NCBI GenBank assembly: GCA_963779765.1
Contig: CAVZZP010000002.1
Span: forward strand, 904,247-968,246
Length of the DNA: 64,000 nucleotides
Reading direction: 5' to 3'
Source: an uncultured Alphaproteobacteria bacterium
GTDB taxonomy: Bacteria; Pseudomonadota; Alphaproteobacteria; Rhodobacterales; Rhodobacteraceae
The position numbers were made by a program, and so were the translations under genes. Each line of letters starts with the position of its first letter. Within the stretch, counting starts at the first letter, position 1. The notes under the pieces were generated by a model, which searched no databases, was not told the origin of the DNA, and saw only the letters and a list, made by a program, of their open reading frames with translations. Shown here piece by piece: positions 30,083 to 33,491 of this stretch.

Positions 30083-31366
30083 TCAGCCCTGTTGGACCTC
30101 GTCCAGAGTGAGGGCCAGGGCCGCGCCGCCGAGGCTCATGGCCGTGAAAAGCGCCAGCGTCCATTCCGGTCCGAACGTCGAGGCGAGAGCGCCGAAGAGC
30201 CCCGAACCCAAAAGGACGATCCCGATGACGGTATTCGAAACTGCCGTGTAGTCGGCCCGCGCGTCGTCCTGTGCCATGTCCACCAGATGCGTGGAGCGAC
30301 CCTGCCGCACGCCGTTGTAGGCCAGCATGAGAAGGAACAGGACAGCGGCCGCGGCCCAGGCCTCGTCGATCATACCCACGCTCGTTAGGACGAGGGTCGC
30401 CGCCAGGGCGGCCGCGGCGGCCACACCGGAGAAGACGAGAACAAGCCGGCTCGACCGATCCGACAAGCGGCCCCAGACATAGCCCGAAACGAGCGACGCG
30501 CCCGCCGAAGCAAGGACTAGCGCCCCGAGGCGTCCAACCGTGCCGCCCTCCTCCTGCCCCGCCAGAAGCACGATGTAAGGTGGTGCAAGGGCCGTGCCGG
30601 TCAGAAGCCCCCGTGCTGCGATGAAGCGGCGAAGTTGCGAATCCTTCAGGGCCGAAAAGGCAGCGAACACCGACCTGTCGTCCGATGTTGTCTCGCTTTC
30701 CTCCTCGCGCAACGTGGCGAAGACAAGGGCCGCGGCGAGCCACAGGACGGCTGCAAAAAACAAGGCGCCCGTCACCACGGCCTCGCGAGACGCCAAACCC
30801 GTCATCAGAACCACAGCGAAGATGAGAATACCCGCAGACGCCACCGAACTTGCCAGTCCCGTTGCCGTACCGCGTCGCGTCTTGCCGACGGTCTTTCCGA
30901 GCACGTCCTTGTAGGCCACCGAGCAGACCGACCGGGCCAGCGCCAGAACGGCCAGGCAGCCTAAGATGGCGACGCCCGCCCCCCGACCCTCCAGCATCAA
31001 CGCGGCGACCCCGATGCCGAGCGCGGCCAACCCTTGCACTGCACTGCCCGCGGCCCAGGCCCACTTTCGTCGCCTGAGTGCGTGGATGCGAGCGGCCGTG
31101 AAAAGCTGCGGTAGCAACGAGCCCGCCTCGCGCACCGGAACCAGAAGACCGACCCAGAACGACCCCGCGCCGAGATGGGTGAGAAGCCAGGACAGCACGA
31201 GCTTAGGATCGATCAGCCCGTCCGCCGTCTTGGTCATGGAAAGCGACGCTGCGTGGCGCAGGAAATTGCCGGCTTCCGTCCGGGACGCGGCGGAGTCGAG
31301 GCCGCCGTCCGATGTCGTGTCGGCCAGGGTCTCGTATATCTCGGTCGTCAGGGGGGTCTGCGTCAT
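30083..31366 (-). CDS. MFS transporter
   Basis: [23 protein letters not shown], many TM helices. Confidence 0.87.
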
Positions 31367-31413: not shown

Positions 31414-31495
31414 TTGACACGACGCCCCCGGTTCGCCATGTCCGATGCGACATACCCGCAATCGGGCGTTCCGTGGGCGCCAAACCGACGAGGAG
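31414..31495 (+). promoter_or_regulatory. thrS promoter and leader (TTGACA -35, anticodon-like hairpin, GAGGAG RBS)
   Basis: TTGACA 31414-19; stem GGCGT/GCGCC with 7-nt loop TCCGTGG (31465-31481); RBS 31490-95. Confidence 0.55.
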
Positions 31496-31505
31496 CATAA
31501 GGCCG

Positions 31506-33491
31506 ATGGCCCAGATTTCCCTGACATTCCCCGATGGCAACTCGCGCTCCTATGCGTCAGGCGTGACGCCTGCCGAAGTGGCCGCCGACATCTCCTCCTC
31601 GCTCGCCAAGAAGGCGATCAGCGCCAAGATCGACGGCCGCCACTGGGATCTTCAATGGCCGATCGACGGCGACGCCGCCATCTCGATCCACACGATGAAG
31701 GACGACGCCCCGGCGCTGGAACTGATCCGGCACGACCTCGCCCACATCATGGCCCGGGCGGTGCAGGAGATCTGGCCCGACGTGAAGGTCACGATCGGCC
31801 CCGTCATCGAGAACGGCTGGTACTACGATTTCGACCGCGCCGAGCCGTTCACGCCAGAAGATCTGGGGCGTATCGAAGCGAAGATGAAAGAGATCATCAA
31901 CGCGCGCGATCCGGTCCGCACGGAAGTCTGGTCGCGCGCCGACGCCATCGCGCACTACGAGGCTTCGGGGGAGAACTACAAGGTCGAACTGGTGAACGCG
32001 ATCCCGGACGACGGCCAGCCGATCCGCATGTACTGGCACGGAGACTGGCAGGATCTCTGCCGAGGGCCGCATCTTCAGCACACGGGCCAGGTTCCCGCCG
32101 ACGCGTTCAAGCTGATGAGCGTGGCAGGCGCCTATTGGCGAGGCGACTCGTCTCGCCCGATGCTTCAGCGCATCTACGGCGTGGCGTTCCGCAACCGCGA
32201 CGACCTGAAGGCGCACCTGACGATGCTCGAGGAGGCCGCCAAGCGCGACCACCGGCGGCTGGGGCGCGAGATGGACCTCTTCCACATGCAGGAAGAGGCG
32301 CCGGGCCAGGTTTTCTGGCATCCGGACGGATGGACGATCTACACCACCCTTCAGGACTACATGCGCCGAAAGCAGCGCGCCGGCGGCTACCGCGAGATCA
32401 ACACGCCGCAGGTCGTCGACCGCAAGCTCTGGGAGGCCTCGGGCCACTGGGAGAAGTATCAGCACCACATGTTCCTGGTGGAAGTCGACGAAAGCCGCGA
32501 CGGCGAGAACGACGACGCCTCCGCCGTGAAGAACCGCGACCAGACCCGGGTCAACGCCCTGAAGCCGATGAACTGCCCCTGCCACGTTCAGGTCTTCAAC
32601 CAGGGACTGAAAAGCTATCGCGACCTGCCCTTGCGACTGGCCGAATTCGGCTCGTGCAACCGGTTCGAGCCGTCCGGCGCGTTGCACGGCATCATGCGGG
32701 TCCGCGGCTTTACGCAAGACGACGCCCACATCTTCTGCACCGAGGATCAGATCGAGGAGGAATGCGCCCGGTTCATCGCCTTTCTGGCGAACATCTACCA
32801 GGAACTCGGCTTCGACGATTTCGAAATCCGCTTCGCCACGCGGCCTGCAAAGCGGGTCGGCACCGAGGAGAGCTGGGACTACGTCGAGGGCGCACTGGAA
32901 AAAGCGATCAAGGCCGTCGGCCGCGACTATACGCTGGAGCCGGGGGACGGGGCCTTCTACGGGCCGAAGCTGGACTTCTACCTGACCGACGCGATCGGAC
33001 GCGTCTGGCAATGCGGAACCTTCCAGGTGGACCCCAACCTTCCCGAGAGGCTGGGCGCCGGCTACATCGCGGCCGACGGGGCCCGGCACCGGCCGTTCAT
33101 GCTACACCGCGCGACGCTAGGCTCGTTCGAGCGGTTCATCGGCATCCTGATCGAGAACTGGGAAGGCAAGCTGCCGTTCTGGCTGGCGCCTCGCCAGGTC
33201 GTTGTCGCGTCGATCGTATCCGATGCGGACGACTATGTCGCGAAGGTGGTACAGAGACTGACCGCCGCGGGCGTCCGGGCAGAGGCCGACACGCGGAACG
33301 AGAAGATCAACTACAAGATCCGCGAGCATTCCGTCGGGAAGGTGCCGGTCATCCTCGCCATCGGACAGCGCGAGGTCGAGGACAACACTGTGACGGTCCG
33401 GCGCCTCGGCACGAAGGAGACATCGACGGTGGCGCTCGACGCAATTGTGGAAGAGCTGAGGCTCGACGCGCTGCCGCCCGATCTGCGGTGA
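31506..33491 (+). CDS. thrS: Threonyl-tRNA synthetase
   Basis: [37 protein letters not shown]. Confidence 0.98.

Follow-up and report, generated by a model that had tools for sequence, protein, structure and literature searches.

The window, a 64,000-nucleotide stretch of DNA from an uncultured member of the Rhodobacteraceae, carries on its forward strand a thrS gene (31506..33491) for a threonyl-tRNA synthetase (ThrRS) of 661 amino acids. The encoded protein has the Pfam domains TGS, tRNA_SAD, tRNA-synt_2b (the class II core) and HGTP_anticodon and can be aligned end to end with E. coli ThrRS (1QF6; E = 2.5e-199), which identifies it as a full-length bacterial ThrRS with all four bacterial domains. 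Upstream, thrS shares an intergenic region of 139 bp with a divergently oriented gene for an MFS-type transporter (30083-31366, reverse strand), whose promoter must overlap or abut the -35 region of thrS. Within this region, on the strand of thrS, lies a short leader with a 17-nt hairpin, which a first-pass annotation had read as a mimic of the anticodon arm of tRNA-Thr.

The coding sequence of thrS itself looks mosaic between 32256 and 33150 (codons ~250-550). Residues 1-250 and ~600-661 are 90-100% identical to those of a genome from the same genus (L002). Residues ~250-550, however, are 84-96% identical to a ThrRS from another genus (L010), as against 58-92% to L002. A 12-residue insertion near residue 330 is common to the window ThrRS and L010, and in a ThrRS tree the window groups with L010 and not with its genus mate. 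This pattern suggests recombination within the catalytic core of thrS.

Anatomy of the thrS leader

All the leader features described here are on the forward strand. The hairpin (31465-31481) consists of a 5' arm GGCGU (31465..31469), a 7-nt loop UCCGUGG (31470..31476) and a 3' arm GCGCC (31477..31481), the arms having been read from the sequence and confirmed in a covariance-model alignment; its inner pair is U.G. According to loop statistics from 79 leaders, the loop corresponds to tRNA positions 32-38, with the anticodon-like CGU (31472..31474) at positions 34-36 and at -34 to -32 from the A of the ATG (31506). Downstream, a spacer of 8 nt, AAACCGAC (31482..31489), which is essentially fixed in length and more than 90% conserved in most columns, leads to a Shine-Dalgarno sequence GAGGAG (31490..31495) placed 10 nt before the ATG. 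The 3' end of the hairpin is thereby separated from GAGGAG by 8 nt and from the ATG by 24 nt. The 5-bp stem and 7-nt loop claimed by the first-pass annotation were found exactly, and its position for the CGU and its 8-nt gap to GAGGAG agree with ours. On the 5' side, the hairpin is preceded by a conserved C/A-rich segment, ACAUACCCGCAAUCG (31450..31464), in which AACCG is nearly invariant among the aligned relatives. This segment is predicted to be unpaired, RNAalifold having returned no pairing here.

The predicted thrS promoter combines a -35 box TTGACA (31414..31419), assigned by consensus and present as TTGAC in relatives, with a predicted -10 hexamer CATGTC (31437..31442) at a spacing of 17 nt. 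In 77 of 79 relatives the conserved AACCG has a TTGAC 40-53 nt upstream of it, and when these 77 leaders are anchored on TTGAC, position +24 is C in 57 and position +25 is A in 71. A strict sigma-70 scan of the window leader gave no promoter match. From the positions of the conserved -35 and -10 signals, the element is expected to lie inside the transcript: transcription of thrS is predicted to start near 31449-31452, giving a leader of ~55 nt, and the mimic hairpin would begin ~15 nt from the predicted 5' end of the mRNA.

Genes for aminoacyl-tRNA synthetases are often controlled by T-box or attenuator-type leaders, which in this case would sense uncharged tRNA-Thr or Thr codons, and a uORF motif acting as an attenuator before cysS has been reported for Rhodobacterales (PMC8632094). 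The thrS leader, however, is not built in this way. Its loop holds the anticodon NGU and not a Thr codon, it is only ~55 nt long, and it has neither a uORF nor an AUG. A terminator scan of the window leader found none, and there was no T-box or other Rfam match at E values up to 10. Given this anatomy, we regard a T-box or attenuator as effectively refuted.

The first-pass annotation had also placed a second hairpin just upstream, at 31442-31465. A hairpin does fold there in the window's genome (31440-31467, -14.5 kcal/mol, z = -4.0), but its conservation stops at the genus, its 5' half being variable in other genera, and its 5' arm overlaps the predicted -10 box and start site. We therefore rejected it as an analogue of domain 4 of the E. 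coli thrS operator, which requires two hairpins for a dimeric ThrRS repressor. Since this second hairpin lies outside the conserved element, a two-hairpin operator of the E. coli type is excluded. An alternative 5' hairpin, CCCG/CGGG, that would compete with the mimic stem was also rejected: it has only 4 bp, its CCCG half degenerates in divergent members, in which the mimic is kept, and it is not predicted by RNAalifold.

Folding predictions for the window's own copy of the mimic hairpin were unremarkable. Folded alone, it is predicted to gain two extra pairs (U.G and C-G) that leave a CGU triloop (z = -1.4). In an 81-nt context its stem forms with a probability of only 0.08, compared with a mean of 0.56 for 79 relatives, and the whole thrS intergenic region folded no better than its shuffles (z = -0.1). 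Thermodynamic support for the mimic hairpin from these models is thus unconvincing. Judged by a criterion chosen post hoc (five or more stem pairs around a 7-nt loop that has GU as its positions 4-5), such a hairpin turns up in only 0.47% of 20,000 dinucleotide-shuffled versions of the 60-nt leader, and the window hairpin, taken alone and without its relatives, would be rather weak evidence, modest at best. The case for the element is therefore made by comparison with relatives, and not by the folding of the window's copy.

Distribution of the element

For this comparison, thrS loci were fetched from 40 related genomes and their leaders were read. A near-identical block, made up of ACCCGCAACC, the hairpin, AAACCGAC and GAGGAG, recurs in ~19 genera of the Rhodobacteraceae (alignment A2), and from this alignment we built the covariance model R1. 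Exactly one match per genome was obtained with R1 in 137 of 151 Rhodobacteraceae genera, and the matches that we inspected all lie directly upstream of thrS. One genome that was negative with R1 (G127, locus L103) carries the hairpin on inspection, and four R1-negative genomes were also without a detected thrS N-terminus; with the first added and the four set aside, the element is present in ~138 of the 147 genera in which thrS could be detected. A locus from an unpublished genome (L252 of G197) was excluded from the sequence analyses, and that genome enters only the tallies for other alphaproteobacterial families. Identity between genera is 91% in the 34-nt core and 30% in the adjacent upstream promoter spacer.

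Outside the family, R1 gave nothing convincing in 149 other alphaproteobacterial families, where there were two marginal matches (E ~0.006), both on contigs other than the one with thrS. We also scanned named genomes for the exact pattern, which occurs in at least 120 stretches; 76 of 80 fetched among the matches listed adjoin thrS directly, and the thrS-adjoining matches among those listed come from Sulfitobacter, Ruegeria, Paracoccus, Rhodobacter, Roseovarius, Jannaschia, Loktanella, Tabrizicola, Celeribacter and other Rhodobacteraceae or Paracoccaceae. The remaining 4 of the 80, from unrelated phyla and in MAGs of Planctomycetales, Terracidiphilus, Hydrogenophaga and Steroidobacter, were rejected as chance matches because both the flanks and thrS are missing there. 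No recurrent hairpin with a 7-nt NGU loop was found in 41 thrS leaders without the motif, drawn from basal members of the family, from its sister family and from 27 further families of Alphaproteobacteria. On a ThrRS tree, 20 of 22 motif-bearing rows fall on one side, the other two being long-branch exceptions, and the 12 motif-less rows, the sister family included, fall on the opposite side. This arrangement fits a history of one gain and two losses of the motif.

Several individual loci may be described here. One genome (G073) has two thrS loci (L257:217-284 and L258) with 85% DNA identity, both behind the full leader motif; the pair could represent either paralogues or a mixed assembly. A complete Rhodobacteraceae thrS leader was also found on a contig labelled as a Marinobacter MAG (L150, JBEDTR010000011.1), together with a ThrRS N-terminus 81% identical to the window's, and this contig is probably mis-binned. 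A basal member without the canonical motif (L023, genome G021) has a hairpin GCCGUUC/GAACGGC 32-60 nt before the thrS ATG, with a 12-nt loop that holds CCGUAAG and with CGU again at -34 to -32, while another locus (L018, G017) has AUUCGUU within an 11-nt loop; these two hairpins may be chance or divergent mimics. Finally, locus L231, from another alphaproteobacterial family, has a 5-bp hairpin GCAUU/AAUGC with the exact tRNA-Thr(CGU) loop UUCGUAA ~100 nt before the thrS ATG. No tRNA gene was found at this site, and since the hairpin lies upstream of a CTTGACA box, it is probably outside the transcript.

Variation of the loop, flanks and stem

Variation within the element was followed in alignment A3, which comprises 82 leaders from different genera, the most divergent matches included, aligned by covariance model. 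As these leaders are related by descent, its row counts overstate their independence. All 82 rows have G35 and U36 in the loop, and position 34, the wobble position, takes C, U, G or A among the aligned leaders. Among 79 leaders the loop is 7 nt long in 71 and 8 nt in 8, the extra base of the latter being inserted in the 5' part; of the 71 seven-nt loops, 70 have a pyrimidine at position 33 and 67 a purine at position 37. NGU anticodons are found in tRNA-Thr only. In the window's genome, the anticodon loops of tRNA-Thr read UUGGUAA, UUCGUAA and UUUGUAA, and G35 and U36 are the only anticodon bases that the three have in common. The leader loop UUCGUAG, common in relatives, is one base away from the UUCGUAA of tRNA-Thr(CGU). 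The first-pass annotation had cautioned that the U33 and A37 of a true tRNA loop are absent. This is correct for the window's UCCGUGG, but relatives often have both bases, in the loop UUCGUAG, and the E. coli operator loop itself has G37. In genome G000, ARAGORN made two odd 'tRNA-Thr' calls, at 1484185-1484280 (96 nt, AGU) and 90565-90645 (81 nt, CGU), which have no normal tRNA sequence and are probably false positives.

The same loop and flanks could in principle belong to a conserved cis-acting RNA hairpin whose partner is something other than ThrRS, the likeness to a Thr anticodon being incidental; such a hairpin might act as a 5' stabilising stem-loop, as a ribosome standby or enhancer element, or as a site for another RNA-binding protein or a small RNA. 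The flanks AACCG (5') and RAACYGAC (3') are as conserved as the loop GU and would be unneeded by a mimic, and the mimic stem does not resemble in sequence the anticodon stems of tRNA-Thr in this genome. Positions 33 and 37, moreover, partly covary as a pair, being pairable in 57 of 71 leaders (C-G in 32, U-A in 19 and U.G in 6), so that the free RNA may be a triloop and not an open 7-nt loop. Against a different partner, the element is single-copy and stands before thrS only, its loop fixes exactly the two bases that all tRNA-Thr anticodons share and leaves the wobble base free, and both loop and position match a proven ThrRS site, that of E. coli; a generic stabiliser, besides, would need no invariant loop. 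On this evidence we consider it unlikely that the element serves a partner other than ThrRS.

Other roles for the loop and flanks were tried and rejected. Neither a pseudoknot of the loop CGU with the ACG before the Shine-Dalgarno sequence nor an anti-Shine-Dalgarno role for the loop sequence UUCC showed covariation with the loop variants. The direct repeat of AACCG in the two flanks was rejected as a mimic of Thr codons or of the CCA end, as its 3' copy varies (ACC, ACU, ACA, AUC and others).

The stem is paired in 99.8% of the cells of A3, one leader having a C.C mismatch, and RNAalifold, run without an imposed structure, returned only the mimic helix. The first-pass annotation had made its proposal depend on the loop GU and the stem being conserved in relatives, and both are. 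The outer pair has undergone double changes, from G-C to U-A once and from G-C to A-U once. The other stem changes are of C to U or of G to A and give G.U or U-A pairs, three of them leading to G.U, and 59 rows have U.G as the inner pair, 21 have C-G, and 22 switches from U.G to C-G were counted. The covariation that had been suggested as a check is seen in these two double compensations and in the changes to G.U, but because the stem is so strongly conserved, true covariation rests on few events.

Changes of this kind also bear on the possibility that the element works as DNA, with the inverted repeat GGCG-N9-CGCC just downstream of the transcription start as the site at which a dimeric transcription factor would block RNA polymerase or make it pause. 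Indeed, GGCGC-N7-GCGCC is a near-perfect palindrome, it would lie at ~+15 to +32 of the predicted transcript, where repressors can act, and the compensatory changes in the outer pair preserve the palindrome too. However, the commonest form of the element, in 59 of 82 leaders, has at the fifth position a T that breaks the DNA symmetry and yields U.G in the RNA, and the three further changes produce G.U on the sense strand only. The invariant bases of the loop and flanks are asymmetric as well, and the fixed 8-nt gap to the Shine-Dalgarno sequence points to a role at the level of translation. We therefore regard a DNA operator as an improbable explanation.

Comparison with known systems and interpretation

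ThrRS recognises both tRNA-Thr and the E. coli operator via the anticodon loop (PMC9976931; PMC11088916), and in E. coli it represses the translation of thrS at an operator in the leader, with tRNA-Thr competing (PMC11088916; PMC3858243). This operator comprises domains 1-4 and is represented by structure 1KOG (PMC11088916, PMC9976931, PMC3858243); it has a split ribosome-binding site, and its upstream single-stranded segment is U-rich (PMC3858243). In the thrS leader of E. coli K-12 (L102), a 7-bp hairpin with a closing U.G pair forms domain 2; its loop is UUCGUGU, in which CGU occupies -33 to -31. A change of CGU to CAU switches control in E. coli to MetRS. The Rhodobacteraceae element likewise belongs to the thrS 5' leader and lies beside the Shine-Dalgarno sequence, and it too has a U.G-closed hairpin, whose 7-nt loop holds CGU at positions 34-36. 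Of the 7 loop positions, 5-6 agree between the UUCGUGU of E. coli and the loops of the window (UCCGUGG) and its relatives (UUCGUAG or UUCGUGG). In the window CGU stands at -34 to -32, which bears out the earlier claim of a similar distance to that of the E. coli mimic hairpin. In both systems an unstructured segment lies upstream of the hairpin, and the four-domain architecture of ThrRS is common to E. coli and the window.

The two systems nevertheless differ in several respects. E. coli has two hairpins, whereas the Rhodobacteraceae have one, without counterparts of domains 3 and 4: RNAalifold returned no further conserved helix that could serve as the second anticodon-arm-like hairpin (domain 4), which in E. 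coli is connected through the single-stranded domain 3 and lets the ThrRS dimer bind symmetrically, the sequence upstream of the core has only the 30% identity given above, and ~15 nt are predicted 5' of the hairpin. The leader is ~55 nt long here and ~160 nt in E. coli, the stem has 5 bp and is, together with its flanks, unrelated in sequence to that of E. coli, and the Shine-Dalgarno sequence is a strong GAGGAG here but weak in E. coli. Unlike in the E. coli operator, the flanks of the Rhodobacteraceae element are nearly invariant, and its 5' segment is conserved, G-poor and unpaired, the upstream segment of the E. coli operator being U-rich. Since the element was not found in the 149 other alphaproteobacterial families, independent origin appears likelier than shared descent with the E. 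coli operator. Mimics in the mRNAs of yeast aminoacyl-tRNA synthetases (AspRS, HisRS and others) offer a further parallel, in that a synthetase tunes translation by binding an anticodon-like mRNA element (PMC6542539, PMC9976931), as ThrRS putatively does here. The yeast mimics are, however, eukaryotic, have other architectures and involve other enzymes (PMC6542539, PMC9976931).

Taking together the anatomy of the leader, its thrS-specific and single-copy conservation, the tRNA-Thr-like pattern of its loop and its likeness to domain 2 of E. coli, all of which are directly supported, we propose that ThrRS represses its own translation through the anticodon-arm mimic, with tRNA-Thr competing. We give this reading, in which the binding of ThrRS is inferred from sequence and from analogy, a probability of roughly 0.6. 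The thrS mRNA would start ~15 nt before the 17-nt hairpin, the loop of which would present Y33-N34-G35-U36-R37 and so resemble the tRNA-Thr anticodon arm. Once there is more free ThrRS than uncharged tRNA-Thr, the C-terminal anticodon-binding domain of the enzyme would bind the leader loop as it does the tRNA. As the hairpin is only 8 nt from the Shine-Dalgarno sequence, the bound enzyme would then keep the 30S subunit off the start site, lowering its own translation. tRNA-Thr would compete for the same site, and repression would be relieved.

The near-invariant flanks go beyond what simple anticodon mimicry accounts for. By analogy with E. coli, the G-poor 5' segment is possibly the upstream half of a split ribosome-binding site, and either flank may provide extra contacts with ThrRS that compensate for the missing second hairpin. 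More tentatively, a minimal one-hairpin ThrRS operator might have evolved in the Rhodobacteraceae independently of the enterobacteria, a single mimic with invariant single-stranded flanks being enough for the dimeric synthetase; we hold this to be possible, with the odds somewhat against it.

Autoregulation of ThrRS by tRNA mimicry is a textbook case, which to our knowledge is known essentially from E. coli. Rfam 15 has no family that matches the leader element, giving chance matches only at E up to 10, and a literature search of incomplete coverage found no description of a thrS leader motif in the Rhodobacteraceae; the main text of the structured-RNA surveys from the Breaker laboratory that cover Rhodobacterales contains no thrS motif, although one of these surveys reports the cysS uORF motif for the order. 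The principle is thus known from E. coli, and what is apparently new is the use of one hairpin in a short leader and its independent origin. The covariance model offers a clean means of annotating a cis-regulatory RNA that is absent from Rfam.

If our reading is true, the element would constitute a second and architecturally simpler case of ThrRS autoregulation by mimicry. It would also be a natural test of whether one anticodon-arm mimic suffices for a dimeric synthetase and of what the invariant flanks add. The family in which the element is fixed is ecologically dominant in the sea and in soil and includes the roseobacters, Paracoccus and Rhodobacter, and the conservation of the element is so high that a result obtained in any one tractable member would extend to well over 100 genera.
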